A stretch of DNA of 64,000 nucleotides, from contig CAIVRE010000006.1 in NCBI GenBank assembly GCA_903908245.1, positions 85,951 to 149,950 of the forward strand. Direction: 5' to 3'. Of this stretch, positions 7,269-26,931 are shown one piece after another; position 1 is the stretch's first letter, and every line of letters begins with the position of its first letter. Position numbers and translations under genes: made by a program. Source of the DNA: Candidatus Omnitrophota bacterium. GTDB taxonomy: Bacteria; Omnitrophota; Gorgyraeia; Zapsychrales; Fredricksoniimonadaceae. Below the pieces are notes generated by a model. It made no database searches, was not told the DNA's origin, and saw only the letters and a program-made list of their open reading frames with translations.

Positions 7269-7278
7269 AAGACAACCG

Positions 7279-8274: not shown

Positions 8275-8289
8275 AATGAAAGACCGTCG

Positions 8290-9285: not shown

Positions 9286-9334
9286 CCAACAGATATGTAA
9301 ACATCCCTGTTTATGTTATTATGATCGATAAAAT

Positions 9335-10234: not shown

Positions 10235-10353
10235 AAGATGATGCCGCATATGTCCGGGCATGCCCGGTACCAGTAAAATTTATTCTGGAATTAGCTAAAA
10301 GTTCTGTGTAAAGTGGTCCATCGGAAACAATATCTCCTTGAGGCTGTTAAAGC

Positions 10354-11784: not shown

Positions 11785-11802
11785 TGGCCCCTTAACCTTT
11801 AT

Positions 11803-13122
11803 ATGAAAAACCCGAAGATCATCATATTTTCGCCTCCCTACCATCATCTCGGCACCAGGGAGTTATACGGTCAAAGCGGACGGGAAGACTGGTTCCCCCT
11901 CGGCGCTTTTTCCATCACCAATGCGCTGCGGCTGGCCGGCAATGAACACACCTTTCTTTATTACCAGGAAGACCATTCTCCCCGGACTCTGGAGCGCCTG
12001 ATCAAAAGGATCAAGCCGGACATTGTCGGCATATCCTGCTTTTCGTTGACCCGGTTCGCGTGCCTTGACCTTGCGAAACGTGTTAAAAAGATCGACCGGG
12101 ATACCCTCACCATCCTCGGGGGGACCCATCCTTCGTTCCTGGATAAACAGATCATGACAAACTACCCGTTCATTGATATGGTCCTGCGGGGTTACGGAGA
12201 AACGGCCTTTCCGGATATTGCCGATGCCTTCTCCCGCCGGAAAACTTTTGACGGGATCCCGGGATTATCCTGGAGGGATAAAGGGCGCTGGATCAGGAAT
12301 CGCGACGGACAAATCCACGATGAACTATCCCTGCCGCTTGCCAAAGACATGCGCGATGCGATCCTCGGAGAGTTCCCGTCCTGGATATCCCGGGACATGA
12401 TCTCCCATACTATCCCGGTTGAGACCGCCAGGGGATGCCCGTACCATTGTTTCTTCTGCAGTAAAATAGAGCAGAAAGAAAACAGGGTCATTGACCGCGA
12501 TCCCGGTCATGTCCTCAAATATATCAAAGGGCTGTTCAAGCTTTTCGGGCCGCGTCCGATATACTTCTGCGCCCCCAATTTTACGCTCAACAAGAAAAAG
12601 GCACTGGCCCTCTGCCGGGCCTTAAAACGTTCAAAACTTCAGGTCCAATGGACATGCGGGACGCGTATCGACCTTATCGACAAAGAACTCCTCCTCGAAA
12701 TGAAAACTGCCGGCTGCCAGCGGATCTATTACGGCGTGGACTCCTTATGTCAAAGGCTGCTCCATTCCATCCACAGGGACTACACGCCGGAAAAAGCCGT
12801 CAGGGACCTGAACCTTACCGTTGCCTGCGGCCTGGCATGCGAAGCCAATTTACTGATCGGGTTCCCGGGTGAAGACCGCCGGTCCCTGTCGGAGTCGCTG
12901 TTGTTCCTGCGCAAGATCGACCCGAAGGTCTCCGTTGTTGTCCGGCCGCTGAAGATCATGCCCGGTTCGCAGCTTTACCATAAAGCGATCGAAGAAGGCT
13001 TTGATGAAACATACTGGCTCAAAGACCATGGCACCGATTTTCCGGATTATACGGGCAGCTTGCCTGCCAAAGAACTTGTTAAATACTGCCGGACCTTTAA
13101 CGAAATCAGGAGAAGAACATGA
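11803..13122 (+). CDS. B12-binding-domain radical SAM enzyme.
   Basis: ARGCPYHCFFC is present. An N-terminal B12-binding-like domain is present. Confidence 0.85.
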   Translation: MKNPKIIIFSPPYHHLGTRELYGQSGREDWFPLGAFSITNALRLAGNEHTFLYYQEDHSPRTLERLIKRIKPDIVGISCFSLTRFACLDLAKRVKKIDRDTLTILGGTHPSFLDKQIMTNYPFIDMVLRGYGETAFPDIADAFSRRKTFDGIPGLSWRDKGRWIRNRDGQIHDELSLPLAKDMRDAILGEFPSWISRDMISHTIPVETARGCPYHCFFCSKIEQKENRVIDRDPGHVLKYIKGLFKLFGPRPIYFCAPNFTLNKKKALALCRALKRSKLQVQWTCGTRIDLIDKELLLEMKTAGCQRIYYGVDSLCQRLLHSIHRDYTPEKAVRDLNLTVACGLACEANLLIGFPGEDRRSLSESLLFLRKIDPKVSVVVRPLKIMPGSQLYHKAIEEGFDETYWLKDHGTDFPDYTGSLPAKELVKYCRTFNEIRRRT

Positions 13123-13592
13123 CCCAGGCCGCTTCCAGGATCTGCCTTGCTGCCCAAAGGCTGGCACAACACGCCGGGCAATGCCTTTTCGTGACCCTCG
13201 GCCACGGCGGGTCCCCCAGGGCGAGATATATGGGCGCTTTAAAGGTCGACAACGGAATGAAGGTATTCCTGGTCTGCCGGCCCGGATCGAACAAAGTGCG
13301 GGAGATCGCCCGGGACCCCCGCGCGCAGGTCGTCCTTGCGGATGAGCCCCGTCGCCGGGTGGTCACGCTCAACGGGAACGCTTATCTGGAACGCTCAAGG
13401 ACCGTCCGCAAGAAACTTTTTACCGCTACGGCCCCTTTGAAATTGTATCCCGCCTTTAATAACGATTTCGGGGTGATCCGTTTCATCCCTGAAACACTGG
13501 AATATCTGGACCTGGATATCAGGCTTGAACCCGTCATCATTGACCTGACAGGGAGGCGCCATTGCTCGCCCAAGACACTAAAAACTTCCTGA
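13119..13592 (+). CDS. Pyridoxamine 5'-phosphate oxidase-like FMN-binding split-barrel protein.
   Basis: Its size of 157 aa and its sequence pattern are typical of PNPOx-like small flavoproteins. There is an ATGA start/stop overlap with the upstream gene. Confidence 0.55.
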   Translation: MTQAASRICLAAQRLAQHAGQCLFVTLGHGGSPRARYMGALKVDNGMKVFLVCRPGSNKVREIARDPRAQVVLADEPRRRVVTLNGNAYLERSRTVRKKLFTATAPLKLYPAFNNDFGVIRFIPETLEYLDLDIRLEPVIIDLTGRRHCSPKTLKTS

Positions 13593-15007
13593 GGTTCCTG
13601 ACCCTCACCGTCCCCGGAGGGATCGAAGATACTCTGGCCGTCCCTCTGTTCCATCCTTTAAGCCCGAAAGAGATCGGAACACATCTTAAACGCTTCGCGC
13701 AAAAGCCGTTCCCCGGCGGCCAACCGCCCAAAACGCACCTCAATATCCATATCCCGTTCTGTTCCTCCCTGTGCTCTTATTGCCATTGTTCCCGCGTCAA
13801 ACTCAAGAACAGGGAACAATTGCGTGATCATGTCGGGCTCATTATCGACCAGATCCGGACATTTGCGCCCTTGTTAAAAGGCCATGAATTCACCTCCCTG
13901 TCCCTGCTGGGAGGAACAGTATCCCTCCTGGAAGATCCCGCGATCGACCAACTCCTGACCGAAGCCCTCGGCCGATTCACATTCCGGAAGAAAACCGATA
14001 TCCATTTCGAAGGGCATCCGGTGTCCCTGACCTCCGCCAAACTGCGCCTTTTACGGCGCCGGGGCGTCAACCGCATCAACCTCGGAGTCCAGACCCTGGA
14101 TGAAAAAGTACTGAAGAACATCAAACGGAACCAGACCAGAAAAGACGTGGAAAAGTGTATCAAGGCTGTCAGGCGATCAGGCTTTCCCTGCCTGAATGTT
14201 GACGTCATCGCCGGACTGCCTGGCCAGACAGTGACCAGCTTCCTGAAGGACATCCAGGACCTGATCCGCTGGAAGGTCGATCTGATCCATATCAACCCCT
14301 TCAGCGATATTGTCGGATCAGCCTGTTACCGGGAGAACCCCGTCGATCTGGCCATGCTTTTCAACCGCCGGCAGGCCATGATCCTCAAAGCCGTTTCACT
14401 CTTGGGATCCGCCGGCTATTCCAACCGGTCGCTTGCCGGATACCAAAGGGCCGGCCTGAAATATAAAGCCGGGAAACAAACGCTTCCCCCGGACGATCAT
14501 GCCGGCGCTGTGCTGAGCCTCGGGATATTCGCCCGCAGCAGCCTTCCGGGAAGCCTAGTCTTTGAAACCCTCCCCTGCGACGACACCTTCAGTACCGCCC
14601 GTTACGCCGGCCACCCGGTCGATCAACGCTACGCCATGGCCAACTATGCCACGCTGCATCTGCTTGACGGAATGGACATCGCCGCCTTCCGGCGCCTTTT
14701 TACCGCCGGTCCCGCTGATATCTTTCAAAAAGAACTTCTGGCCCTTGCCGAAGAAGGCCTGCTGTCATCCGACGGAAAGACATGGCGCTACTGCGGCCCC
14801 TGGACCATCCCCGGACTTTTCAATTATTACTCCCTCACCAAGATATTGTACGGGAAGAAGATGCTTGATGCATTGCGGCGGACCTATGCGGCAAAATATG
14901 ATCCGGCGGCCGATCATGGCTCGCCGAAAAACCTTTTGAGGATATTCCAGGACCTCTGGTACACGCGGACCTATTACCGGTTAGGCTACAAATCCTGCTG
15001 GCTATAA
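13562..15007 (+). CDS. HemN-like radical SAM enzyme.
   Basis: NIHIPFCSSLCSYCHC is present. The N-terminal motif NFLRFLTLTVP is shared with the other HemN-like paralogs. Confidence 0.85.
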   Translation: MLAQDTKNFLRFLTLTVPGGIEDTLAVPLFHPLSPKEIGTHLKRFAQKPFPGGQPPKTHLNIHIPFCSSLCSYCHCSRVKLKNREQLRDHVGLIIDQIRTFAPLLKGHEFTSLSLLGGTVSLLEDPAIDQLLTEALGRFTFRKKTDIHFEGHPVSLTSAKLRLLRRRGVNRINLGVQTLDEKVLKNIKRNQTRKDVEKCIKAVRRSGFPCLNVDVIAGLPGQTVTSFLKDIQDLIRWKVDLIHINPFSDIVGSACYRENPVDLAMLFNRRQAMILKAVSLLGSAGYSNRSLAGYQRAGLKYKAGKQTLPPDDHAGAVLSLGIFARSSLPGSLVFETLPCDDTFSTARYAGHPVDQRYAMANYATLHLLDGMDIAAFRRLFTAGPADIFQKELLALAEEGLLSSDGKTWRYCGPWTIPGLFNYYSLTKILYGKKMLDALRRTYAAKYDPAADHGSPKNLLRIFQDLWYTRTYYRLGYKSCWL

Positions 15008-15027
15008 AGACCGCGTCGGAAAACCTT

Positions 15028-16458
15028 TCATACCCCCAGGTCATATACCGCTTGCACGAACCAGCCGTTATCCATGATCTTTAACATGAACCGCTCCTGA
15101 GAATAATCAACCGACGAATGATACTCCCGGCTGAAATTGGCCTGCAACTTTTCCAACAGGGCATCATCGTACAGGATCTTGATCCACGCAAAAAGATCGA
15201 ATAATGCCCGGAACGACCTTGTGCCCGGATAAACAAGCCGCCCGTCCTGCCAGGCCACCAGGCCCAGATGCTCCAAACGCTTCAACCCCGCTCCAAAAAC
15301 GCCCTCCAGGCTTTCCCCGAAGATCCTTTGAAAATCTTTCCTTTGGATCCCTGATAAAATATTTAAAATAATAAAATTAGCCATTACGGCATGTTTCGGA
15401 TAAGCATAACCAAAATATTCATTATCCGTCATGTCCTTTCCCGACCTTGGCAGGCACTGCATCACGGCCTGCCCCGGAAAGGTACTGATCGCATACGCCC
15501 CGATCCCCAGCGTAGCCCCGACAGATCGTTCATAAAGCACAGACTGCTCCTTTTCTCCTCCGGAGACCATTTGAAAAGCCTCATGCCCCCGCCTCAAATA
15601 CCCTCCGGAAAGGAGCATCTCCCTGCCTTTTCTGGTCATGGTATGCCGCCCCTTGAAAAAAGCGGCAATATCCCCTTTCTTCATTTGATAATAGGGCGAC
15701 GGCTGTATATTCCAGAAAGGATGAAGATGGATCACTTCCGGCTTACGCGCGATCAGGAACCGCAGGTCCGCCAGAAAGCTTGCCTCTGTCTGCAACGGAA
15801 GGCCTGCCATCACATCAATATTCAGGAAATCAAAACTCAAACTCCGGATATTATCGATACAACGCTCGACCTCTTCCCTGCTCTGCAAGCGATCTACTGC
15901 GTTAAGAACTTTCTTGTTCAGGGTCTGCACGCCAAGGCTTATCCGGGAAACTCCCCCTTCTTTCAAAGCCTTCAATTTATCAAGCGTTAATGTCCGCGGG
16001 CTGCCTTCAAACATAAAATAAGCCTTTTCCCGTACAGCAAACGACCGGCGGATCGACCCGAGGAGCCCCGTGATCTGAGCCGCGCTCAATAATGAAGGGG
16101 TCCCTCCGCCAAAATTACATATATCAACAGGCACGCCCCTGGCATGAGGCGCATAAGCATCTATCATCCCCAACAAATACTGATAATACGCCTGCATCTC
16201 CGCTTTTTGAGCAACGGCCTTTCGCTCGCACCAGCAGTAAAGGCAACGCTTCAGACAAAAAGGAATATGAAAATAAAGAGAAAAAGCCGGAGAATAAGAA
16301 CGATACCCCCGCTGAAAGAAACGGTCGATATGCTTCCCCATGACAGTCCCGGGAACCGGATTAAAAAGGGCTCCGCCGAACATGTCCACCTGGCCCAGAG
16401 GCAGCTTAAGTGTCAGGAATCTCAGGAAATTAATATCCCGGATCTTCATGGCCTTCAT
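15028..16458 (-). CDS. HemN-like radical SAM enzyme. The start was chosen at MKAMKIRD, which gives an ATGA overlap with the upstream stop; the ORF track extends to 16515.
   Basis: YFHIPFCLKRCLYCWC and GGGTPS are present. The N-terminal motif INFLRFLTLKLP is present. Confidence 0.8.
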   Translation of the reverse strand: MKAMKIRDINFLRFLTLKLPLGQVDMFGGALFNPVPGTVMGKHIDRFFQRGYRSYSPAFSLYFHIPFCLKRCLYCWCERKAVAQKAEMQAYYQYLLGMIDAYAPHARGVPVDICNFGGGTPSLLSAAQITGLLGSIRRSFAVREKAYFMFEGSPRTLTLDKLKALKEGGVSRISLGVQTLNKKVLNAVDRLQSREEVERCIDNIRSLSFDFLNIDVMAGLPLQTEASFLADLRFLIARKPEVIHLHPFWNIQPSPYYQMKKGDIAAFFKGRHTMTRKGREMLLSGGYLRRGHEAFQMVSGGEKEQSVLYERSVGATLGIGAYAISTFPGQAVMQCLPRSGKDMTDNEYFGYAYPKHAVMANFIILNILSGIQRKDFQRIFGESLEGVFGAGLKRLEHLGLVAWQDGRLVYPGTRSFRALFDLFAWIKILYDDALLEKLQANFSREYHSSVDYSQERFMLKIMDNGWFVQAVYDLGV

Positions 16459-17813
16459 TGTCCATTCCCGGAGGAAAAATACTCGCGGCCCGCGCTGCGG
16501 AACGCCCGGAGCCAATGCTCCATCGAGCGCCCCTTGATGGCCGCCATATACGACGGGATCGCTTCCTCGTGGTCGCTTAACCAGTACGACTCGTCAAACC
16601 CCTCTTCCAGAGCCTGCTGATACAGCGGCGATCCAGGCATAATATACAGCGGAGAAACATCCACCACGCAAGAAGCCGGAAGCCGCTTTAAATTCTGAAA
16701 AGACTCTTTCAGGGTAACTTCTGTTTCTCCGGGGAAACCGATCATCAGGTGGACGCAAGGCCTTATCCCCGTTGACGCAACCAACGCCAAGTTCCGGATC
16801 GCCAGCCCCGGAGCATAGTTCTTCCCCGACGAACGCAGGATCCTGCGGGATAACGAATCCAGCCCGAAGAAAATACCCCGGCAGCCGGCCTTCTTCATCC
16901 CAAGCAAAAGCTCCTCATCGACAAGGTCGACCCTTGTTGTACATACCCAGGAAAAACAGAACCGCTCGCGGATGATCGCCGAACACAGCCGCAGGGCATA
17001 TTCCCTGTTAAGCGTAAAATTCATATCATGGAAATAAACAAAATCCCGGCAGCCTTCAGGGATCAGGTAAAGCTGTGCGATGACCTGATCGATGTTTTTT
17101 TCTGAAACCTTCCGCTGCCAAAGCCCGACGGTACTGCAGAACCGGCAAGCGAACGGACACCCCCGATGCGTTTCAACAGGGATCCCGTCGTGCATCAGGA
17201 TCGCGGCGTCCGGGTCTTTCAGCGGTTTGACCGGAAAAGCCTTAAGATCGATCAGCGGTAATTCGTCAAGACCGGTCAACGACGGACGGGATGCGCTGCG
17301 GTGAGGCTTCCCCCCGGACCGGAACGTTATCCCCGCCACAGACGAAAGGTCCCGGCCCGCATCGAGCGCCCTCAACAGCGCCTCAAAGGAATCCTCGCCT
17401 TCTCCCCTGACAACATAATCAACACACGGATACGAAGACAGTATCTGTCCGTCCAGGAAAGTGGCATGGATCCCGCCCATGATCACCGTGACCGCCGGGT
17501 CGACTTCCTTGACGAGCCGGGCAAGCTCGACACAGGCAAAACGGTTGAACGATTGGCATGAAATACCAATGACCGAAGGCCGCTCCCGCCGGATATACCG
17601 GGCCAGCGTCCCTGGCGAATAGTCGGTACCGCAATAGATCCGGCAGCGCGCCTTCAACCGCTCCTGAAGACAGGACGCTATTGACGCCAGCCCCAGGGAG
17701 AGCCGCAGCGGGGCTTCAAAAGGGTCCCGAAGGCGCGGGTTCCCCAAATGCCGTCCGGGTGGCAGAAAAAAAAGAATGTTAAAGCTGTTTATCCGGGATC
17801 CCATGATCATCAA
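16455..17813 (-). CDS. B12-binding-domain radical SAM enzyme.
   Basis: HRGCPFACRFC is present. An N-terminal B12-binding-like region is present. Confidence 0.85.
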   Translation of the reverse strand: MMIMGSRINSFNILFFLPPGRHLGNPRLRDPFEAPLRLSLGLASIASCLQERLKARCRIYCGTDYSPGTLARYIRRERPSVIGISCQSFNRFACVELARLVKEVDPAVTVIMGGIHATFLDGQILSSYPCVDYVVRGEGEDSFEALLRALDAGRDLSSVAGITFRSGGKPHRSASRPSLTGLDELPLIDLKAFPVKPLKDPDAAILMHDGIPVETHRGCPFACRFCSTVGLWQRKVSEKNIDQVIAQLYLIPEGCRDFVYFHDMNFTLNREYALRLCSAIIRERFCFSWVCTTRVDLVDEELLLGMKKAGCRGIFFGLDSLSRRILRSSGKNYAPGLAIRNLALVASTGIRPCVHLMIGFPGETEVTLKESFQNLKRLPASCVVDVSPLYIMPGSPLYQQALEEGFDESYWLSDHEEAIPSYMAAIKGRSMEHWLRAFRSAGREYFSSGNGQ

Positions 17814-17819
17814 AACCCG

Positions 17820-19133
17820 CTAACCGTTCCGCGCGGTAACCCGCTCGAATTTCTTCACCCATTTCCACTGCTCCTGCGCCGGGATCGACCCGGTGTAATA
17901 CGGCAGCGCCTCCGCATGATCCTCAAGCCAGTACGCTTCATCGAACCCCTCCCCAAGGGCGACGTCATATAACGGCGCCCCGGGCACGATCTCCAGCGGA
18001 TGCACCGCGAGAGTGATCCCGGGATGAAGCTTCCTGCACCCGATCAACGATTCCATCAGCGTTTCTTTGGTCTCCTGCGGAAATCCTACAATAAGGTTGA
18101 AATGAACCCTTATCCCCATCTCCGCTGTCAAATTGGCATTCGCGATAGCCACCTCGGGATCATACTCCTTATGGATCGAACGCAAGACAGTGCCGGAAAG
18201 CGACTCCACTCCGAACAGGATCATTTTGCAGCCCGCTTTCTTCATGATCTTCAAAAGCGGCTTGTCGATCAGATGGACCCTGGTCTGACAGCCCCAATGC
18301 AGATCCATGCCACTGGCAATGACCGCGGAACAAAATGCGCGCGTATACGCTTTATCCAACGTAAAGGTCAGATCCGGGAAAATAATATGCTTTCGATACG
18401 CTTCAGGAATAAGGCGGATCTGTTCTATGGCGCGCTCGACGCTTCTCTTGACGGTCTTCCGCCCCCAAAACCCGACGGCACTGCAAAAAAGACACACAAA
18501 AGGGCATCCGCGCGTTATTTCCACCGGTAATCCGGACAAAATATCTTCTTTTTCCCAGGATCGGCCCAAAGGCTGCAATTGATATTTGGAATAATCGATC
18601 AACGGGAATTCGTCAAGGCTCGCCACCCTGGCCCGAGGCGCTGTACGCATGACTTTCCCTGAATGAAGAAAAGAAATACCCCGGATCTTGCGCAGATCCT
18701 TTCCCTGCCGAAGGGCGTCGAGAAGATCAAGAAAAGTTATCTCCCCCTCGCCGCGAACAATATAATCCACATCCGGACAGGTGCGAAGGATCTGCCGGTC
18801 CAAACACGTCGCGTGAGCCCCCCCCAGGATCACCGTCACGGAAGGATCCAGGGCCTTCATCAATCGGGCCAGCTCCAGGCAGGCGAACCGATTATAAGAT
18901 ACGCAGGATAAACCGATCACGGAAGGCCGATTCGTCCGGAGAAATTCCTTTAACGCCGCGATGGAATAATCTCCCGATGAATACGGGATACAGGTTATAT
19001 CCGAATGATGCTCAACATATGCCGCGATCGATGCTATCCCAAGATCAATATGAAATGGCGGAACAACGGTCTCGTCGAACTTAAAGGACGGCAGCAGATG
19101 CCTGTCAGGAGGATTGAACAATACGACCCGCAT
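17820..19133 (-). CDS. B12-binding-domain radical SAM enzyme.
   Basis: TRGCPFVCLFC is present. It is a paralog of 16455-17813. Confidence 0.85.
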   Translation of the reverse strand: MRVVLFNPPDRHLLPSFKFDETVVPPFHIDLGIASIAAYVEHHSDITCIPYSSGDYSIAALKEFLRTNRPSVIGLSCVSYNRFACLELARLMKALDPSVTVILGGAHATCLDRQILRTCPDVDYIVRGEGEITFLDLLDALRQGKDLRKIRGISFLHSGKVMRTAPRARVASLDEFPLIDYSKYQLQPLGRSWEKEDILSGLPVEITRGCPFVCLFCSAVGFWGRKTVKRSVERAIEQIRLIPEAYRKHIIFPDLTFTLDKAYTRAFCSAVIASGMDLHWGCQTRVHLIDKPLLKIMKKAGCKMILFGVESLSGTVLRSIHKEYDPEVAIANANLTAEMGIRVHFNLIVGFPQETKETLMESLIGCRKLHPGITLAVHPLEIVPGAPLYDVALGEGFDEAYWLEDHAEALPYYTGSIPAQEQWKWVKKFERVTARNG

Positions 19134-20330
19134 TTAAATGGCCTTCCTTACTGCAGACGCCCCGCCGAACCACGCCCCCGGGATCTTGACCCCGGCCATA
19201 TCCTTACGCAACATCCTGACAAGCGCAGCGGCCATCCCCGAGGCTGAAAGCTGTTTGAACAAAAGGACTTCGCTGCGGATATGGTCGGACAATAAACGCG
19301 CCCGGGCCGGTTGTTCCCGGAAGTTCAGCGCCCCGCCATAACCTTCAAACGGAATGACCACCGCCCGCTTGGCATGCCTCAGCAAACTTAACGACGTATG
19401 ATACGGAGCCGGACAGATGCAGACATCACTCTCCGCAATAAGCTGGTCATAGCGGTCCGTCCACCTTACCAGACGGCCATTGGGCACTTTCTTCTTTGCC
19501 ATCAGTCCCTGGAACATCCGCCATTCCCCGTCAGTTGTCGACGGGCCGGCAACAAAGATATATTCATAGCCATCGCCTGAAATATCGCTGGCTTTAATGG
19601 CTGCCGCAATGATCTGCGGATAATACGCCCCGCCGCCGCGGACAACCGCCACCCGGACAACTCCCTTGCGGACAAATCCCGCCTTGCCTTCGCCCGGCTT
19701 GATCGCCGGAGCCTCAGGCACAAGATAGCCTGTAAAAACAACCTTGCGCTCGTTCTTCTTAAAGAATTCACGATACGCGCGCCGGCCAATTCCGGCAGGA
19801 TAAAGGCCGGACATATAATCCATTTCGATCCGCGGGCACAAAATAAAGATACGCTGATAAAGGCTCAGGATGAAGTCCAGCGAACGCCCTCGTCGGGCGG
19901 TCAACAGCGGGTATCCGGCAATGGAGAAGAGCGGGACTTTCTGCGAAGATAATGCCATTAAGGAAGGCAACAACTCGTCACGGCACTCGCCGCGGCCCAA
20001 CGGAAAAAATTCTGTAACAAAGACACCCGGCTTTGCCTGTTGAACAATATCCAGGCATTCCTTCGCCCGGATGGCAGAAGAAAAAGGATCTGCGGCCGCC
20101 GGATACCTGAAATTCGCCCGGCTGTTAAATGGCCGGCTCAAGGAATGCACCACCCCCGACCGGTCAAGGCTGGCCGCCGGCTGGTCACAGCCGCCCTGAA
20201 TAAAAAAGAAGTTCCTTTGAGGGAACTTCTCTTGATATATCCCGGCGAACGCCGCTACACGCGACGTATGCCCAAAACATTCGTAATGAGTATAATAAAC
20301 CCCGATCGTCTTGCGCAAGGGTGATCCATT
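19134..20330 (-). CDS. GT-B fold glycosyltransferase (GT1/MGT/GT28-like). The start is uncertain; the track ORF reaches 20432, but that extension overlaps the peptide gene in another frame, so a TTG start near 20330 is proposed.
   Basis: The N-terminus has KTIGVYYTHYECFGHTSRV, resembling the GT-B N-terminal glycine/His motif. The C-terminus has ESDVCICPAPYHTSLSLLRHAKRAVVIPF, typical of the GT-B donor-binding domain. Confidence 0.5.
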   Translation of the reverse strand, partial: NGSPLRKTIGVYYTHYECFGHTSRVAAFAGIYQEKFPQRNFFFIQGGCDQPAASLDRSGVVHSLSRPFNSRANFRYPAAADPFSSAIRAKECLDIVQQAKPGVFVTEFFPLGRGECRDELLPSLMALSSQKVPLFSIAGYPLLTARRGRSLDFILSLYQRIFILCPRIEMDYMSGLYPAGIGRRAYREFFKKNERKVVFTGYLVPEAPAIKPGEGKAGFVRKGVVRVAVVRGGGAYYPQIIAAAIKASDISGDGYEYIFVAGPSTTDGEWRMFQGLMAKKKVPNGRLVRWTDRYDQLIAESDVCICPAPYHTSLSLLRHAKRAVVIPFEGYGGALNFREQPARARLLSDHIRSEVLLFKQLSASGMAAALVRMLRKDMAGVKIPGAWFGGASAVRKAI

Positions 20331-20340
20331 GGTCAACACT

Positions 20341-20595
20341 TCAATAAGAAGTATGTGACGCCGTATTCGTATGATCAAAACAACCCGCGGTCGTCTGAAG
20401 GCTGTTCGCGTGGTTCGTATGGTCTCCCGCACTCGCGTTAAAAGCCGCGCCCAGCGCCGCCATTCCGGCTACCGTGGACAATCCCACCTTAAGGATCGTC
20501 TCCTTGCTGACAAACCCGTCCTCATCCATCACAAACCCCTTAAGGCTTTTAACAACATCATCCTTCTTAAGAAGTCTTTTTTTCTTGAGCGCCAT
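20341..20595 (-). CDS. Candidate RiPP precursor peptide of 84 aa with a C-terminal His-Xaa-(Ser/Thr/Asn)-rich core.
   Basis: The sequence is MALKKKRLLKKDDVVKSLKGFVMDEDGFVSKETILKVGLSTVAGMAALGAAFNASAGDHTNHANSLQTTAGCFDHTNTASHTSY. A strong Shine-Dalgarno, GGAAGGAAAG, lies 4 nt upstream of the ATG. It overlaps the 3' end of the SPASM rSAM gene by 29 nt, on the same strand. Residue use is atypical for an enzyme: K-rich N-terminus, hydrophobic middle, H/T/N/S-rich tail. Confidence 0.5.
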   Translation of the reverse strand: MALKKKRLLKKDDVVKSLKGFVMDEDGFVSKETILKVGLSTVAGMAALGAAFNASAGDHTNHANSLQTTAGCFDHTNTASHTSY

Positions 20596-21988
20596 AACGC
20601 TTTCCTTCCGTCCAGCGGTTGAAGATATCGGCTTGGTCCCCGCCTTCGATCAGGCGGCTGAAAATATGCTCGTACTGAAACGCCTGTATCTTCTGCATTG
20701 ACGAACAGGCGGTTTTTGGAACGATGTTCTTCTGCTCGGCATAATTGACCACCGGGCAATACCCCATCCACGGGCTGAACACGGAACTGTAATGCCAAAG
20801 ATTCACGCAGGAAGCCTGCAACAGATTGAGCAGGTTTTCCTTATTAAGTATAGCATCAAATTCCTCATTCACAATATTCCCCAGCTTGAACATTTCCTCC
20901 CCCAGCATCCGCGCCTCGTCACACGGATAGGCACTGCCGTCCGGCATATACACCATCGTGGAACGGCCGGCCCCGCATGGGCTCATCATATCCACATAAC
21001 CCGGGTCTCTTTTGGCCAGGACCTTGGTAAGGATGACCCGCGCAACACGTTCGCTCAAGTGCCGCCCCTGACGGTTGATCTTGATGATATGCTCAAATCC
21101 GCGTTGATAGAAATCACAAAATTCTTCCGGTGTGACCCCGATATCCCGCCAGGAACAACGCGCCGATCCCATGCAATTCGCAGGCCGAAGCGATATCTCT
21201 TCCTGCCCCAGGCTCACATACTCATCAATGATCCGTTCAGGATGCGCCAGGGAATGTTTGGTGATCGTGGGCAACAGCGTGACTTTCCGGCCAAATTTAT
21301 CCTTGAACCGCCTGATCCTGGCAACCACCTCGCTGTAAGTCCCGCGGCCCTCTATGTCCACCCGATTACGGTCATGAATGTCTTTCGGGCCATCCAGCGA
21401 AGAACAGACATCCACATCGTGTTTGGCCAGGAATGCCATTTTTTTGTCATCCAGGAGCATCAAATTGGTCACCAGCACCAGCTGAAGTTTCTTGCCCAGT
21501 GTGTTGAACTTGCGGGCATTCACGACCAGAAGCTCCAGCACCGGCCAATTGAGCACCGGCTCACCGCCCTGGAATTCCAGGACGACCGATGGATTGGCGA
21601 CATCAAAAAGATATTTCAGCACGCGCCCGGCCACCTCGATCGTCATATCCTGCGATAAAGTGCCTCCTTCTGCCTGGCAATAGGAACACCGCAGATTACA
21701 GCGTTTTGTCAGCACGGCAATATGCAATGAGGTGTCTGTAAAGAGATTGGCGTTCAGGGACCGGAACCCGGTAATGACATCCGCGATGTTCGACTGATCC
21801 ACGACGATCCCGCGCGTGCGCAGGCGTTGGGCAAGGGCATCGGAAGACTTAAGGCGCAAGGCATTCAGCTGCCGGAATTCGGCAGGGGTCAGCGCATCCC
21901 AGCACCCCATCATATTGCTGACAAGGTATTTCCCGTTGATCTTCGCGGAATTGAACGGCAGGATAACAATATCATTTTCGTTCTTCAT
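20567..21988 (-). CDS. Radical SAM/SPASM enzyme (anSME-like) with a ~100-aa N-terminal extension, possibly a peptide-recognition (RRE-like) domain. It is the candidate maturase for the adjacent peptide.
   Basis: LTKRCNLRCSYCQAEGG is present. The C-terminus has multiple Cys (C..C...CSSMQ), consistent with SPASM. It is 473 aa. Confidence 0.85.
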   Translation of the reverse strand: MKNENDIVILPFNSAKINGKYLVSNMMGCWDALTPAEFRQLNALRLKSSDALAQRLRTRGIVVDQSNIADVITGFRSLNANLFTDTSLHIAVLTKRCNLRCSYCQAEGGTLSQDMTIEVAGRVLKYLFDVANPSVVLEFQGGEPVLNWPVLELLVVNARKFNTLGKKLQLVLVTNLMLLDDKKMAFLAKHDVDVCSSLDGPKDIHDRNRVDIEGRGTYSEVVARIRRFKDKFGRKVTLLPTITKHSLAHPERIIDEYVSLGQEEISLRPANCMGSARCSWRDIGVTPEEFCDFYQRGFEHIIKINRQGRHLSERVARVILTKVLAKRDPGYVDMMSPCGAGRSTMVYMPDGSAYPCDEARMLGEEMFKLGNIVNEEFDAILNKENLLNLLQASCVNLWHYSSVFSPWMGYCPVVNYAEQKNIVPKTACSSMQKIQAFQYEHIFSRLIEGGDQADIFNRWTEGKRYGAQEKKTS

Positions 21989-21997
21989 AATGGCCGA

Positions 21998-22732
21998 TCA
22001 AGGATTGTCCGGTAATGGTGTGGTGAACGGCCCCTTGCAAAAGGCTTTAATATCGGCATCCTCGATCCCGTCGCAATAATCCTTATCTTCTGCATGACGG
22101 GCAAACCTGAAATAGGCAAGATCCGATTCCAGCTGCTTCGCATCCGCCCCTTCGAACAGCATCTTGCAATCAACGACATTCTGATAATTCACCGCTGTCC
22201 AGGAAAGAGGATTATCGCCCACCATCTCGCGCACAAATTGCTGGCACTGCCGCGGGCCTTTCACATACCCCCGCGCAAAAGAGATCAAACGGATATCCCA
22301 ATCCCGCTCTGATTTAGGATAAAAAACCTGCACTTTCGCGTGCAAACGGTCAAGAAGATCCCGGCTCGGCTGCTGCAATAACGAACAAAAAATGGATTCC
22401 AGTTCATTAAGGTCCTTGGACGGCTTGCAATTTTCGGCAGCAAGGGCCTTTTTTATCCGAAGGTACTGATTTTCCTGCGAAGGAAAACCCGCGGGACAAT
22501 TCTTTTGAGAAAAACAGGACAGGTCCTCGATCTCTTTCGAGTCGACTATGTCAAACTTGTACCCCAGGCGGATCGCCTTGTGCTCCCACTCAATCCGCTC
22601 CTCCAAAGTAGGCACGGCCGGCGCTTCAGTCCTCTCGACATCTTTGGCCAACAAAGAAGGCGTAAACCCCGTTGCGCAAAATAAAACAAGGACACCGGTA
22701 AGAATAACGGAAACTTTCCCCCAAGAGATCAT
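21998..22732 (-). CDS. Hypothetical exported Cys-containing protein (signal peptide, 8 Cys).
   Basis: The N-terminus is MISWGKVSVILTGVLVLFCATGF, then a hydrophilic domain. There is a 4-nt overlap with the upstream ORF. Confidence 0.45.
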   Translation of the reverse strand: MISWGKVSVILTGVLVLFCATGFTPSLLAKDVERTEAPAVPTLEERIEWEHKAIRLGYKFDIVDSKEIEDLSCFSQKNCPAGFPSQENQYLRIKKALAAENCKPSKDLNELESIFCSLLQQPSRDLLDRLHAKVQVFYPKSERDWDIRLISFARGYVKGPRQCQQFVREMVGDNPLSWTAVNYQNVVDCKMLFEGADAKQLESDLAYFRFARHAEDKDYCDGIEDADIKAFCKGPFTTPLPDNP

Positions 22733-23172
22733 TTCTTCCCCTTCTTGCCGGTCTTGCCGGTCTTGCTGGTCTTGCTGGTCTTGACTTCCTCAGCCTCAAG
22801 TTCTTTAATAAGATCTTCGATCTCCTTGTCTTCCGCCTCTTTCACCATCGTCGGAGATGCGGAAAAGAGAGCGCGCTGCAACAGCAGCTTGAGCCCTTCG
22901 GCATTGGCCTTGAGGCTGGAAAAATAATGGGCATAATTCAGCAGTTCCTGCGAAAAGTCCAGCGCCAGTTGATCAAAGTCTTTCTCTTTCCCTTTAGGCG
23001 AAAGCCACACATCCACCGTTCCTTTTTTTCCTTCATCCAGGCGCACATACGCGCGGTCCATGAAAACATACCCCGCGGAATGAATGGACTGTAACGGATA
23101 AACATTGGTATTCACCGGCAATTTGACCCAACCATCGGCCTTCTGGAAAACTTTCGCCATATACATCTCCAA
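22729..23172 (-). CDS. Hypothetical 147-aa protein with a C-terminal K/T/S/G low-complexity tail.
   Basis: The tail ends ...EAEEVKTSKTSKTGKTGKKGKK and is encoded by 9-nt direct repeats at 22745-22800. Internally it has ELLNYAHYF, a weak resemblance to the LLNDYxLRE signature I recall for HxsD; this is unverified. Confidence 0.45.
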   Translation of the reverse strand: MEMYMAKVFQKADGWVKLPVNTNVYPLQSIHSAGYVFMDRAYVRLDEGKKGTVDVWLSPKGKEKDFDQLALDFSQELLNYAHYFSSLKANAEGLKLLLQRALFSASPTMVKEAEDKEIEDLIKELEAEEVKTSKTSKTGKTGKKGKK

Positions 23173-23226
23173 GAAATATTACAGATTAAGAAGAAAATCT
23201 TTAAAAATTATAACAAATTCCCAACA

Positions 23227-23601
23227 TCATTCAAGCAGTCGTTCCACCTTAAGCGCGAGGAATTCATTGCGAAAAGGCTTGGCAAGATAATCATTGGCGC
23301 CTGCCTTCATGAACCGTTCAACATAGTCCATATCCAGCGCGCCCGACACCACGATGATCTTCACATGGTTCGCGGCAGGATCCATTCTAAGCCGCTGACA
23401 TACCTCAAAACCGTCCATCCCGGGCATCCGCAGGTCCAGCAGGATCAGGTCGGGCCGGAACTCCGCGAACTTTGCCTCGGCGGCAAGGCCATCATAGGCG
23501 ACATCCACCATATACTTCTTCTGATTGACCAGCACCCGGCGCAGGGCATTAGACATTTCATGGTCGTCATCAACGATCAATATTTTCTTCGGATCCGCCA
23601 C
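23227..23601 (-). CDS. Single-domain response regulator (CheY-like receiver).
   Basis: KILIVDDD, the phospho-acceptor motif DLILLDLRMPGMDG, and the K in YLAKPF are present. Confidence 0.8.
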   Translation of the reverse strand: MADPKKILIVDDDHEMSNALRRVLVNQKKYMVDVAYDGLAAEAKFAEFRPDLILLDLRMPGMDGFEVCQRLRMDPAANHVKIIVVSGALDMDYVERFMKAGANDYLAKPFRNEFLALKVERLLE

Positions 23602-23605
23602 CGGG

Positions 23606-23974
23606 CTATCCTTCCAGTAAAGATATGACTTTTAAATGATAGAACCGCAGATATTTTTCTTTTTCCCGTTCAGGCAAAGCTTCGAACTTCCCGCCGGCAC
23701 GATAGCCCTTGTATTGCTCGAAATACCCCGCCCAAACAACCTTTAAACACACCTCCAACCGCCCGATCTCGGGCAACTCCATCACCAAGCGGACGACCTG
23801 GTCCGGCTGAAGCCCTTCCGGCGACAAAAAACACATGCCATCAGGGGTAATATTGACCACTTGACTGGCAAAGATCTTGCCCGATCCCGCAAGAACCTCG
23901 CCCTGCGCGGCAATATCAACCCCGACTCTGCGCCATTCACGCGATTCATTCATAATATTATTATCAAGCCTCAT
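23606..23974 (-). CDS. PilZ-domain (c-di-GMP binding) protein.
   Basis: The RxxxR motif (REWRR) and D/NxSxxG-like NITPDGMCF are present. Confidence 0.45.
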   Translation of the reverse strand: MRLDNNIMNESREWRRVGVDIAAQGEVLAGSGKIFASQVVNITPDGMCFLSPEGLQPDQVVRLVMELPEIGRLEVCLKVVWAGYFEQYKGYRAGGKFEALPEREKEKYLRFYHLKVISLLEG

Positions 23975-24017
23975 TATCTTAATTTACCATATTTTCGACT
24001 TTCTTGCGAATAATTAA

Positions 24018-24081
24018 GGGGACACTTTACTTAATTCCCTTTTTAACCATCCGCGTTACGGGAATTAAGTAAAGTGTCCCC
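24018..24081. repeat. 21-bp perfect inverted repeat with a 22-nt spacer, 4 nt past the hcp stop codon. It is copy 1 of a palindromic element shared with 36859-36903.
   Basis: ggggacactttacttaattcc (24018-24038) pairs with ggaattaagtaaagtgtcccc (24061-24081). Confidence 0.7.
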
Positions 24082-24085
24082 CTAA

Positions 24086-25744
24086 TTACACGCCCGACAT
24101 GATCGCGGGAACATCGACCTCGGCTGTGGCCGTCGGCCTAATATTGAACTTCTCCACCAGCACCTTGGCCACATTGGGCGACAGGAACGCCGGAAGGGTC
24201 GGGCCCAGGCGGATATTCTTGACCCCCAGGAAAAGCAATGCCAGCAACACAGCCACCGCCTTCTGCTCATACCACGCGATATCGTAGGAGATCGGCAACT
24301 TGTTGATATCATCAAGCCCGAACGCCTCTTTAAGTTTAAGCGCGATGACCGCCAGTGAATACGAATCATTGCACTGACCAGCATCAAGCACGCGCGGGAT
24401 CCCGCCGATATCGCCCAGCTTCAGTTTGTTATAACGGTATTTGGCGCACCCCGCGGTCAGGATGACCGCGTCCTTCGGAAGGGCGGCGGCCACATCCGTA
24501 AAATACTGACGGTCCTTGTTTCGCCCGTCGCAACCGGCCATCACCACAAAACGTTTAATCGCTCCGCTCTTGACCGCGGCCACCACTTTATCGGCCAGTG
24601 CCATCACCTGGTTATGGCCGAAGCCGCCCACCAGTTCACCTGTTTCGATCTCTTTCGGAGCCGGACAGGACTTTGCGCACTTGATGATCGCAGCAAAATC
24701 CTTTCTTCCGCCTTCAGGCCGTTCCCCGATATGCACGGCCCCCGGATATCCGGCCGCACCCGTCGTAAACATCCTGCTCAAATAAGACCCTTTAACAGGA
24801 ATGATACAATTGGTCGTCATCAGGATCGGCCCGCTGAAATTCTCGAAATCCGAACCCTGATGCCACCAGGAACTGCCATAATTCCCGACGAAATTATCAT
24901 ACGCCTTGAACTTCGGATAATAATGGCCGGGAAGCATTTCACTGTGCGTGTACACATCAACGCCCGTCCCCCTGGTTTCTTCCAGAAGGTCTTCCAGGTC
25001 GCGCAGATCATGGCCGGAAATAAGAATGCCCGGATTCTTGCGCACGCCAAGGTTCACTTTGGTTATCTCCGGATTGCCGAACCTTTCGGTATTGGCCTTA
25101 TCCAGAAGAGCAAGCGTTGTCACCGCATTCCCTCCTGTCTTCATGACCATCGCGACCAGGTCATCGACGCTCAGGTCCTTCACCGTAGCGACCAAGGCAT
25201 CAACGATCTGCCCATAGATCGCCGGATCCTCATGCCCCAGGTCCGCCGCGTGATCGGCATACGCCGCCACCCCTTTAAGCCCGTACATAATAAGCTCGCG
25301 CAATGAACGGATATCCTCATTGCCCGTTGTCAACACACCCACACTGCCCGCCTTGGCACGGATCGCCTCGTCCGTATCGGCCGTCCAGGTCGCACATTCA
25401 GGCGCCGAAGCCTGGCATCCGCAACTCTGCGACGCGCCTAACACCTTGTGTTTCCAGATATCGCGAACTTTAAGGGCTTCCCTGATCCGTGCAATGATCA
25501 CCGACTCATCAAAATTGGCATTGGTGATCGTCATAAATATGGCGGAGGTCATAAACCTCCCTGTCTTAAAATCCAATGCAATGTCCTTTTGCCTGGCCTT
25601 ATCGGCCCACACCGCGATCCCCTTGACCGTAAAGATCAACAGGTCCTGAAGATTGGCGAGCTCATCACTCTTGCCGCAAACACCCTTGACCTTGCAGCCG
25701 GTATTCCCGGCTGTTTCCTGGCACTGATAACAGAACATGCTCAT
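24086..25744 (-). CDS. hcp: Hybrid cluster protein (hydroxylamine reductase / prismane protein).
   Basis: The N-terminus [25 protein letters not shown] is the Hcp N-terminal Cys motif. It is 552 aa. Confidence 0.9.
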
Positions 25745-25758
25745 AATTTCCCCCTTTT

Positions 25759-26484
25759 TTAAATGATCTCGCCCCGAAGCGAGATCGTATATTCTTTCAA
25801 CACAATGCCCCTGCCTGAACGGCGCACCGCATCCTCAACGAGGCTGACCGTCCCCCCGCAACAGGGCACTTCCATCCGCACCATGGTGACCGAACGGATA
25901 TTATTCACCTGGAATATCCCGGTGAGCTTTGCAACATACCCCTCCAGGTCTTCATCGAGCTTGGGACAGAACACGACCAGGACTTTCCCCTTAAGGAACT
26001 TGCGATGAAAATCAGCATAAGTGAACGGCACACAATCCGCGCTGACCACAAGGTCCGCGTCCTTAAAAAATGGCGCATGGGGATCAAGCAAACGCAACTG
26101 CACCGGCCATTGCATCAGTTCCGAAAGCAGCGGCCCCGAGCCGGCCTCCGGCTTCACGCAAGAGCCTGCCGGAGATCGTCCCCGAAAATCCTGCGTCATG
26201 CTCCCCGGGCAACCGCATGCCATGGGCTTACGGGCTTCTGTTTCTTTATGCATCTTCACTTTCTCCTCGCTGAATTTATCGGCCTCCCGCTCCTCGATCG
26301 CGATCGCCCCCCGGGGGCACTCCCCAAGACAGGCCCCAAGGCCGTCGCACAATGCATCCGCCGCCAGCCGCGCCTTGCCGTTGACGATCCTGATCGCCCC
26401 TTCATGACAGGAAGGGACGCACACCCCGCAACCATTGCATTTGTCTTCATCGATCCTGACAATACTTCGTTTCATAAACCCCAC
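25759..26484 (-). CDS. 4Fe-4S dicluster ferredoxin-domain protein, co-transcribed with hcp.
   Basis: Two CxxCxxCxxxCP motifs are present: [11 protein letters not shown] and [12 protein letters not shown]. Confidence 0.65.
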
Positions 26485-26529
26485 CTGCGATTAATGACAC
26501 CATGGCAGTATCATATTTTAATAAAAAAA

Positions 26530-26931
26530 TCATCTCTTCATCAACGACGCGATCGTGACTCCACGCAAATGCGCCAGCGCCATGGCCTCGATCTGCTTGA
26601 TCTCGCGGCGCAAAGGACATGTCTTCACGCATTCACACAACTTCTTCCTGAAAAGACAGTCCCCCATTGAGACCGGCCCCTGAAAAAGTGCTATCAGATC
26701 GGCCAAACGGATCTTTTCAACCGGTAAAACCAGCGTAAAACCGCCGTTCTTCCCCTTGGCCGATGCCAGATATCCGGACTTCTGAAGCGCCTGAAGGGTC
26801 TTGCGCATGAACGGCCTGGGAAGTTCAAGGTCGCGCTCAAGATCTCGCGCCGACACTCTTTCCGGCGCCTTCCCGGCCATGTGGATCAGAGCGCGCACCG
26901 CATAATCTGTATTTCGGGTCAACAGGTTCAT
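26530..26931 (-). CDS. Rrf2-family transcriptional regulator (NsrR/IscR-like).
   Basis: MNLLTRNTDYAVRALIHMA is an Rrf2 N-terminal winged HTH. Cys residues are present for a possible Fe-S cluster. It is located upstream of the ferredoxin-hcp pair. Confidence 0.8.
   Translation of the reverse strand: MNLLTRNTDYAVRALIHMAGKAPERVSARDLERDLELPRPFMRKTLQALQKSGYLASAKGKNGGFTLVLPVEKIRLADLIALFQGPVSMGDCLFRKKLCECVKTCPLRREIKQIEAMALAHLRGVTIASLMKR

Follow-up and report, generated by a model that had tools for sequence, protein, structure and literature searches.

The window analysed in this work is a stretch of 64,000 nucleotides (nt) from a Candidatus Omnitrophota bacterium (assembly GCA_903908245.1, contig CAIVRE010000006.1, positions 85,951 to 149,950 of the forward strand). 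Its minus strand carries a gene for a radical S-adenosylmethionine (SAM) enzyme of the HxsB family, which overlaps the gene of an 84-amino-acid (aa) peptide and lies downstream of an hxsD-like gene. HxsB is a family already known; new is the variant of the His-Xaa-Ser (HXS) system that surrounds it in Omnitrophota. The analysis shows which genes are present, their motifs and family scores, the folds predicted for them and the conservation of their order. The features at the centre of the locus, in coordinates of the window, are as follows (RRE, recognition element of peptides that are ribosomally made and then modified post-translationally, RiPPs):

20567..21988, minus strand: hxsB-like radical SAM maturase, 473 aa (matches to NCBIfam TIGR03978, Pfam, AlphaFold2 model, PDB)
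21734..21988, minus strand: N-terminal RRE-like winged-helix domain of the enzyme, residues 1-85 (AlphaFold2, Foldseek, conservation)
21677..21700, minus strand: CxxxCxxC radical SAM cluster motif, C97/C101/C104 (direct reading; none of the three Cys varies among 66 homologues)
20705..20977, minus strand: degenerate SPASM-like region, residues 338-428 (C338-x12-G-x4-C356, S402-x2-S405-x5-C411, C428)
20341..20595, minus strand: HxsA3-like precursor peptide of 84 aa, whose gene overlaps hxsB by 29 nt (NCBIfam HxsA3, NF038309, 25 bits, cutoff 65)
20515..20595, minus strand: peptide leader, residues 1-27, Lys-rich, ending in K-S-L-x-x-F-V-M-D-E-D-G27
20437..20514, minus strand: hydrophobic segment FVSKETILKVGLSTVA... 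of the peptide, residues 28-53 (28-46 the same in almost every one of 119 sequences)
20344..20436, minus strand: core/tail of the peptide, residues 54-84, with H-x-N, the single Cys72, H75-T-N77 and H81-x-S83-Y84
22729..23172, minus strand: hxsD-like gene, 143-147 aa, Lys-rich tail (TIGR03976 27.8 bits, cutoff 50; precomputed Pfam assignment PF27806 HxsD)

The enzyme belongs to the HxsB family

The open reading frame (ORF) of the enzyme translates into 473 amino acids with the N-terminus MKNENDIVILPFNSAKINGKYLVSNMMGCWDALTPAEFRQL. Reading of the sequence revealed a single CxxxCxxC motif, C97-C101-C104 (CNLRCSYC), which is preceded by 96 residues, and a GGEP motif at residues 141-144. The ORF of the 84-aa peptide starts 29 nt ahead of the stop codon of the enzyme gene, and a Shine-Dalgarno-like stretch, GGAAGGAAAG, precedes its start. 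The first-pass annotation of the window had placed the CxxxCxxC motif at about residue 97 and the enzyme gene upstream of the peptide gene with a 29-nt overlap; the motif starts exactly at C97, and the coordinates of the two genes agree with that description.

The NCBIfam model TIGR03978 (His-Xaa-Ser system radical SAM maturase HxsB) matched the enzyme over its full length (residues 9-460 against profile positions 1-466 of 466) with a score of 372.1 bits, the cutoff being 370. The next-best NCBIfam models were those of the SCIFF maturase (134 bits, cutoff 425) and of PapB (131 bits), and the Pfam families matched were Radical_SAM, Fer4_12 and SPASM. Almost all near homologues come from metagenome-assembled genomes (MAGs) of Candidatus Omnitrophota, and several of them carry the HxsB annotation. 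The best solved relative found by sequence was CteB (5WGG; E 1.4e-27, 18% identity). Since the catalytic cores align from residue 89 to 391 in the enzyme and from 102 to 393 in CteB, the N-terminal extension of the enzyme is as long as that of CteB.

More distant HxsB homologues, with 27-35% identity, occur in MAGs of Nanoarchaeota/Woesearchaeota (DPANN archaea; loci L013-L016 and L024) and of Acidobacteriota and others (L017, L019-L022). Some of them adjoin hxsD. No obvious HxsA-like ORF was seen downstream of these archaeal and acidobacterial homologues.

The 84-residue peptide resembles HxsA3

The peptide resembles HxsA3 (NF038309) in its length (~81 aa in HxsA3) and aligns with the model end to end (residues 14-84 against profile positions 5-79 of 81), whereas its score and those of its best homologues all stay under the 65-bit cutoff (50.5 bits for the best homologue scored individually). 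Searching 1.84 billion representative sequences with the peptide profile yielded 94 clusters; the homologues number 141 and are ~62-106 aa long. Among the matches listed with a source name, the public annotation is only 'hypothetical protein'. HxsA3 was matched by 78 of 87 diverse members of the family (best E 2e-12), essentially no other model was matched, and distant members contain clear HxSHxSHxSY runs. The peptide is real, and its family appears to be a sister of HxsA3 that has so far gone without annotation.

In an alignment of 119 sequences the leader residues L18, D24, E25, D26 and G27 were invariant, and the whole stretch from residue 24 to 46 (DEDGFVSKETILKVGLSTVAALG) was essentially so. 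The mean Kyte-Doolittle hydropathy of the hydrophobic segment was 1.2-1.7 in windows of 15 residues. The tail had invariant H62, N64, H75, N77 and Y84, with C72, H81 and S83 present in at least 90% of the sequences, and every aligned sequence ended with H-x-S-Y or a near variant. The triads of the window peptide are H-T-N, H-A-N, H-T-N and H-T-S, i.e. one H-x-S and three H-x-N. The tail contains neither Lys nor Arg.

A second copy of the peptide gene was not found in the window. The profile also matched 33 stretches of a 4,220-aa protein (P0243), which was rejected as a false positive because it is a repetitive adhesin-like protein. Locus L010 has two divergent copies of the peptide gene (107..520 and 8379..8810), both longer and with ends other than SY; genes similar to p245 and to peptidase A24 (see below) follow the first copy.

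The genes of the enzyme and the peptide occur together across related loci

Fifteen related loci were compared, 12 found from the enzyme and three from the peptide. The order hxsB-peptide was present in all 15. The peptide gene overlaps the hxsB stop codon by 4-29 nt in 10 of the 12 enzyme-anchored loci and comes 9-16 nt after it in the other two, whereas the three peptide-anchored loci all have the order hxsD-hxsB-peptide with an overlap. A homologue of hxsD was present in 14 of the 15 loci. Because the gene order is conserved and the family assignments of the two products agree with it, an enzyme-substrate pair is the natural reading. Such a pairing had been proposed in the first-pass annotation; it is now backed by the HxsA3 match, although a weak one, by the HxsD gene upstream and by the order found in every locus.

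The N-terminal domain is predicted to have the fold of a RiPP recognition element

The N-terminal extension could be aligned from about residue 9 in the homologues, with P11, V23, G28 and W30 invariant in an alignment of 66 sequences (the window enzyme and 65 homologues with 50-87% identity). Since homologues align there with invariant residues and the HxsB profile spans the extension, it is genuine coding sequence and not a chance run-on; the coverage of the TIGR03978 profile further indicates that it is a trait of the entire HxsB family.

The AlphaFold2 model of the full enzyme, built from the 66-sequence alignment, had a mean predicted local distance difference test (pLDDT) score of 90.5 and a predicted template modelling (pTM) score of 0.89. 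It contains strands at residues 12-17, 20-25 and 30-33, followed by helices at 35-42, 51-58 and 68-78, with pLDDT of ~95. A second run with residues 1-92 alone gave the same topology (pLDDT 84.7 for the isolated model). PqqD-type RREs share this winged-helix arrangement of three strands followed by three helices.

In a Foldseek search of the PDB with the full model, CteB (5wgg_A) was the top match (E 1.5e-24, 475 aligned columns). CteB, TigE and SuiB, which have the architecture RRE-radical SAM-SPASM, were aligned over 454-486 columns (TigE and SuiB over 459-486), whereas the anaerobic sulfatase-maturating enzyme (anSME), which has no RRE, was aligned over only ~380-394. When the isolated domain was searched against 350,542 PDB chains, the top six matches were all RRE-bearing RiPP proteins: McbB (6gri/6gos/6grg), CteB (5why_B) and the PbtF RRE (8t19_A). 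For McbB, a component of microcin B17 synthetase, the Foldseek probability was 0.90-0.99 for the best-aligned chains. A search of PDB sequences with a profile of the domain returned only designed pentatricopeptide-repeat (PPR) proteins; these were discarded as an artefact made up of many summed repeat hits of ~5 bits.

The RRE assignment is thus well supported at the level of the fold, and binding of the leader by this domain is predicted. The segment had originally been likened to RREs by its size and position only, and structure prediction had been named as the way to check the likeness: the AlphaFold2 run on residues 1-92 returned an RRE-type topology, and the six nearest structural neighbours were RREs, not a fold that does not bind peptides. 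There were no SCIFF maturases among the compared loci.

The SPASM-like region is degenerate

The reference SPASM signature comprises seven Cys, CX9-15GX4C ... CX2CX5CX3C ... C. The Pfam SPASM family (PF13186) scored 27.7 bits on the enzyme, above its threshold of 21.5, with residues 338-388 matching only positions 1-50 of the 67-position profile. The first half of the signature is present as C338-x12-G351-x4-C356. In place of the second half the enzyme has S402-x2-S405-x5-C411-x3-N415, followed by C428. In the alignment S402 and S405 stand opposite the CxxC pair of the canonical HxsB of Rhizobium (C-I-H-C-P-Y-Q-A-F-C), and both of these Cys are missing from all 12 Omnitrophota-type HxsB sequences examined. 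The SPASM label of the first-pass annotation therefore stands for the first Cys half, where the Pfam threshold was passed, but not for the second, in which SxxS replaces CxxC. The number of auxiliary clusters in the enzyme may be zero or one.

The Omnitrophota HxsB sequences fall into two subclades by their Cys residues. One has C338/C356/C411/C428; the other has Thr or Ser at 356 and Asp at 411 and lacks residue 428. In the loci examined, members of the second subclade go with short peptides (84-90 aa) and with the absence of HxsC. The window enzyme has Ala at position 353, where 94% of the homologues have Cys.

The locus is a trimmed variant of the HXS system

The HXS system of Escherichia coli is encoded by hxsD-hxsB-hxsC-hxsA, and all four genes are required (PMC13128918). 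Its HxsA, 214 aa long, carries a signal peptide, five HxS repeats and a peptidoglycan-binding domain. The N-terminus of HxsA is processed, an SHRSS motif in it gains 8 Da, and, acting from the periplasm, the protein keeps phage DNA from entering (PMC13128918). In E. coli HxsB the residues of the first cluster that were mutated were C98 and C101, and C399 and C402 were needed for full activity (PMC13128918). A canonical HXS-type locus was also seen in Rhizobium (L026).

The window locus shares with the E. coli and Rhizobium systems the full-length match to the HxsB model, including the ~95-residue N-terminal extension, the hxsD gene upstream, and His-x-Ser-type motifs placed behind a hydrophobic segment of the substrate. 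It differs from them in the absence of HxsC and in the gene order, D-(p244)-B-A instead of D-B-C-A. The enzyme has S402/S405 in place of the CxxC pair (C399/C402 in E. coli, C-I-H-C in Rhizobium) and new Cys residues at 338 and 356, and its substrate is an 84-aa peptide instead of a peptidoglycan-binding protein of 190-215 aa. The host belongs to Omnitrophota and not to Pseudomonadota, in which 99.7% of the HXS systems of a published survey were found (PMC13128918).

A tblastn search of the 64-kb window with two HxsC queries gave nothing better than E 0.002, attributable to generic radical SAM similarity, and an HxsC-like gene was present in only 4 of the 15 related loci. The slot held by HxsC in other loci is occupied in the window by p244:

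21998..22732, minus strand: p244, predicted exported Cys-rich protein with hydrophobic N-terminus and 9 Cys

No match to p244 was found in Pfam, NCBIfam or PADLOC. The homologue search returned p244 alone, and its family is visible by locus comparison only: p244 is 38% identical to its homologue in L005, and p245 proteins, which are weakly linked to it, come after the peptide gene in 13 of the 15 loci. Where an HxsC-like radical SAM enzyme is present (L003, 6842..7997; L009; L023), its best match is the HxsC4 model with 165 bits (cutoff 500). A conserved protein of 73-75 aa, p74, precedes this enzyme and occurs in L007 as well, a locus without HxsC.

Taken together, the window locus is a trimmed variant of the HXS system, and this variant is found across Omnitrophota.

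Neighbouring genes

The genes and signals around the core of the locus include:

23207..23234, minus strand: best sigma-70-like promoter match of the region, TTGAAT-16-TATAAT (10 of 12 positions, plus TG), just upstream of hxsD
19134..20318, minus strand: GT28_C-like protein, 394 aa (Pfam Glyco_tran_28_C, E 5e-4, below threshold)
15028..19133, minus strand: two B12-binding radical SAM genes and one HemN-like radical SAM gene, following the GT-like gene with near-zero gaps

The total of sigma-70-like matches in the region was not above the expectation from shuffled sequence, and only the position of the best one is suggestive. Downstream of it an operon-like run comprises hxsD, p244, hxsB, the peptide gene, the GT-like gene and three more radical SAM genes. 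The GT28_C-like gene lies 22 nt downstream of the peptide gene. Homologues of its product were found in nine of the 15 loci: eight, with 40-52% identity, adjoin hxs genes, and the one in L009 is weak (24%). In L003 the trio of GT-like, B12-binding and HemN-like radical SAM genes likewise follows the hxs genes. PDB sequence searches with the GT-like protein and with HxsD gave no match.

Upstream (23227..26931) the neighbours are conserved in L003, L005 and L023: an Rrf2 regulator, a 4Fe-4S ferredoxin-like protein, a hybrid-cluster protein (Prismane), a PilZ protein and a response regulator. The set is kept even where the HxsB of the genome shares only 61-67% identity.

The 3' end of the hxsD-like gene contains a tandem repeat of 9 bp (22743..22783; 4.6 copies, 96% matches), which encodes the Lys-rich tail, (K-T-S/G)n; canonical HxsD, of 90 aa, has no such tail. 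Ten radical SAM genes are crowded into 16 kb (6003..21988), four of them B12-binding, three HemN-like, two small SPASM paralogues, and hxsB, which alone among them reached an NCBIfam cutoff. The same 16 kb also contains a PPOX/F420-like gene (13119..13592), along with the GT-like gene.

A prepilin peptidase-like gene accompanies hxsB

On the opposite strand the window encodes a divergent protein similar to the A24 family of prepilin peptidases, and in other loci genes of type IV filaments or type II secretion systems (T2SS) lie near hxsD:

9335..10234, plus strand: Peptidase_A24 (prepilin peptidase)-like membrane protein, 299 aa (Pfam PF01478, 23.3 bits, gathering threshold 26.5; profile positions 2-103 of 104)
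7279..9285, plus strand: two paralogous small radical SAM/SPASM genes directly upstream of the A24-like gene (Pfam Radical_SAM and full-length SPASM)
Type IV filament/T2SS genes near hxsD: L018, 1167..5584; L087, 1..3213; L088, 1..3197; L086, 331..1689; L008, 2..826

The A24-like orthologues in L088 and L018 pass the Pfam threshold (35.2 and 28.9 bits), and the window protein is 35% identical to that of L087 (tblastn E 3e-44). An Asp in the first transmembrane segment and the motif W-x-x-G-D-A-K-L-F were invariant across eight A24-like sequences; we take the former Asp and that of GDAKLF to be the two catalytic aspartates of A24 peptidases. In 10 of the 15 loci an A24-like homologue lay no more than a few kb from hxsB, usually beside a small radical SAM gene, to which the window paralogues are weakly similar (27-29%). 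In L010 the A24-like gene adjoins a second copy of the peptide gene. T2SSE, MshEN and T2SSF genes lie directly upstream of hxsD in three loci, and T2SSE or T2SSF is close upstream in two more.

The layout of the peptide is that of a class III signal: a Lys-rich leader ends with the invariant Gly27 and is followed by F-V-S-K-E, with Glu at +5, and by the hydrophobic helix (KDEDG|FVSKE). K-D-E-D/S-G is similar to the leader end of Flp pilins, which we treat as a lead and not as a test. Pfam Flp_Fap was not matched by any of 87 members of the peptide family at E <= 10, and the likeness is at the level of the motif only. While the signal layout and the A24-like gene with both Asp motifs in 10 of 15 loci are shared with type IV/Flp prepilins, the peptide differs from these in having Lys at +4 and +9 and no Tyr at +6, and the A24-like protein of the window is just below the Pfam threshold. 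The absence of T2SSE and T2SSF genes from the 64-kb window also speaks against a prepilin. Cleavage by signal peptidase I after N-A-S-A56 is a less likely alternative, which would leave both the invariance of residues 24-46 and the accompanying A24-like gene unexplained.

It is possible, with the balance tipped against it, that the HxsA3-like peptides of Omnitrophota are hybrids of RiPP precursors and prepilins: the RRE-like domain would read the leader (K-S-L-x-x-F/L-V/M-K-D-E-D-G), HxsB would modify His, Asn, Ser and Tyr residues of the tail without HxsC, and the A24 peptidase would cut at G27|F28. The product would have 57 residues, comprising the hydrophobic helix and the modified tail, and might be displayed on or beyond the membrane; in some genomes its assembly could be carried out by the T2SSE/T2SSF proteins encoded directly upstream of hxsD. 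No paper linking prepilin peptidases with radical SAM precursor peptides was found in the searchable literature.

Alternative explanations

The enzyme might be an anSME-like modifier of proteins, with the 84-aa ORF encoding a small membrane protein that has no relation to it and only happens to lie next to its gene. It is true that, among solved structures, anSME came second in likeness to the catalytic core (4k37, E 1.2e-19; Foldseek TMt 0.83). The anSME models, however, scored 107.1 bits (TIGR03942, cutoff 349.45) and 87.7 bits (NF010321, cutoff 441) against 372 bits for HxsB; anSME lacks the N-terminal domain, which limits its alignments to ~380 columns, and no sulfatase gene was noticed adjoining the locus. 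The peptide gene moreover accompanied hxsB in every locus, whether the search started from the enzyme or from the peptide, and the peptide is similar to HxsA3. This explanation is extremely improbable: the enzyme is an HxsB-family maturase and not an anSME, with which the first-pass annotation had considered that it might group. A more serious rival concerns the N-terminal domain, which could be a structural cap or bind a partner such as HxsD, the peptide being recognized elsewhere. The domain has no sequence similarity to PqqD, the E-values of its fold matches are weak, and HxsD, which binds HxsC in E. coli, is kept in 14 of 15 loci even without HxsC and hence needs a partner. Against this, no other fold class occurs among the six top structural neighbours, all of them RREs, and the architecture of the whole enzyme is that of CteB, SuiB and TigE. 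In these three enzymes the N-terminal domain binds the leader. Residues 16-27 of the peptide, which lie upstream of every plausible cleavage site, are also highly conserved, a conservation that demands a reader, and we regard the cap as quite improbable.

The remaining rival would carry over the E. coli system unchanged: once matured, the peptide would act in the periplasm as an effector against the entry of phage DNA, and the locus would be a defence island. In favour of this, the locus has HxsB, HxsD and a substrate of His-x-Ser type whose hydrophobic segment is export-like, and HXS was shown by experiment to be antiphage in E. coli (PMC13128918). What is missing is HxsC, essential in E. coli, and the peptidoglycan-binding domain of the substrate; electrostatic binding of DNA is unlikely as well, because neither Lys nor Arg occurs in the tail. 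Rrf2, ferredoxin and Hcp remain the chromosomal neighbours at an HxsB identity of only 61-67%, which resembles vertical inheritance more than a mobile defence island. PADLOC (2023 library, which has no HXS model) returned only generic radical SAM similarity to viperins, and nearly all HXS systems of the survey cited above are from Pseudomonadota. With no HxsC, p244 in its slot, conserved neighbours and a tail devoid of basic residues, an unchanged transfer of the E. coli antiphage mechanism is doubtful, and we consider this explanation unlikely.

Discussion

We consider it likely that the enzyme is an HxsB-family maturase whose RRE-like domain docks the leader of the 84-aa peptide and whose catalytic part modifies the tail, within a trimmed variant of the HXS system. 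The enzyme and peptide genes overlap and would be translationally coupled. The precursor would consist of three parts, the leader (residues 1-27), a hydrophobic helix (28-53) and the tail (54-84), and the first ~85 residues of HxsB would most likely dock the conserved stretch of the leader (~14-27). A reader domain for the leader is expected because this stretch is conserved far beyond the needs of a peptidase that requires only Gly at -1. The radical SAM core would cleave SAM, and the 5'-deoxyadenosyl radical would abstract a hydrogen in the C-terminal tail, where the candidate targets are the H-x-N/H-x-S triads, the one Cys and the invariant C-terminal Tyr. HxsD probably assists HxsB, because HxsC, its partner in E. 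coli, is absent. The modified peptide is probably inserted into or exported across the membrane by its invariant hydrophobic segment, and its leader would be removed, at G27|F28 by the A24-like peptidase or, less probably, after A56 by signal peptidase I. The tail would end up outside the cytoplasm, with p244 as a possible partner there. Binding of the leader by the N-terminal domain, the chemistry, the cleavage and the export are steps that we infer.

Several observations weigh against this reading. The HxsB equivalog cutoff was passed by 2 bits only, and the scores of the peptide on HxsA3 (25 bits, cutoff 65) and of the HxsD-like protein (27.8 bits, cutoff 50) are below cutoff. With the isolated N-terminal domain the Foldseek E-values were weak (0.04-0.3) and the TM scores only 0.3-0.46, and neither PqqD (PF05402) nor any other consistent Pfam family was matched at E <= 10 in 35 N-terminal domains. 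The auxiliary Cys set is incomplete, the CX2CX5CX3C half being absent. By score, the closest characterized families are thioether-forming (SCIFF 134, PapB 131 bits) and not cyclophane-forming (62-70 bits). hxsC, required in E. coli, is absent from the window. The +8 Da modification of E. coli HxsA was modelled on HxsC-HxsD and not on HxsB (PMC13128918), and it differs from the mass change of a simple crosslink.

As to the chemistry, we know of no product of any HxsB. CteB (the SCIFF maturase), SuiB and TigE resemble the enzyme in combining a winged-helix domain, a radical SAM barrel and a C-terminal SPASM-type domain, and in having the substrate gene adjacent. CteB differs in its low sequence identity (18%), in the SCIFF score of 134 bits against the cutoff of 425, and in the second SPASM Cys half, which the window enzyme lacks. 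The SCIFF substrate has six Cys against the one of the window peptide, so that sactionine-type chemistry does not follow. Radical SAM triceptide synthases crosslink C2 of His to C-beta of the residue at +2 on HAA, HNR and HTK motifs (PMC11499958). Those synthases, HaaB, YhhB and HtkB, are likewise radical SAM/SPASM maturases acting on an aromatic-x-x triad with His first, to which H-x-N and H-x-S formally correspond (PMC11499958). The cyclophane-synthase models, in contrast, cover only the early part of the radical SAM domain, with scores of 61-70 bits that are far below the cutoffs of 310-450. By analogy, a His-to-C-beta crosslink over three residues, as in triceptides, is our guess, and one rather likely to be wrong. 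The alternative is a thioether formed from the conserved Cys72, as suggested by the nearest scoring families, SCIFF and PapB.

The E. coli study of 2026 showed HxsB to be essential; it left the role of HxsB and the recognition of HxsA unsettled and mentions no RRE (PMC13128918). An RRE-like docking domain present family-wide, a claim that rests on the coverage of the TIGR03978 profile, would make HxsB the substrate-reading component. With HxsD, HxsB, a substrate of soluble size (84 residues) and no HxsC, the variant of Omnitrophota offers a minimal system made by nature, and it may be far easier to reconstitute in vitro than the HXS of E. coli, whose 214-residue substrate is insoluble. If the peptides do turn out to be RiPP precursor/prepilin hybrids, the product would be a radical-SAM-modified mini-pilin, a lineage-wide trait of a poorly known phylum and not a mobile antiphage cassette, and the link to A24 peptidases and type IV filaments would join radical SAM peptide maturation to pilin processing. 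The main value of the variant lies in a minimal model of HxsB function, together with this possible link to pilins.

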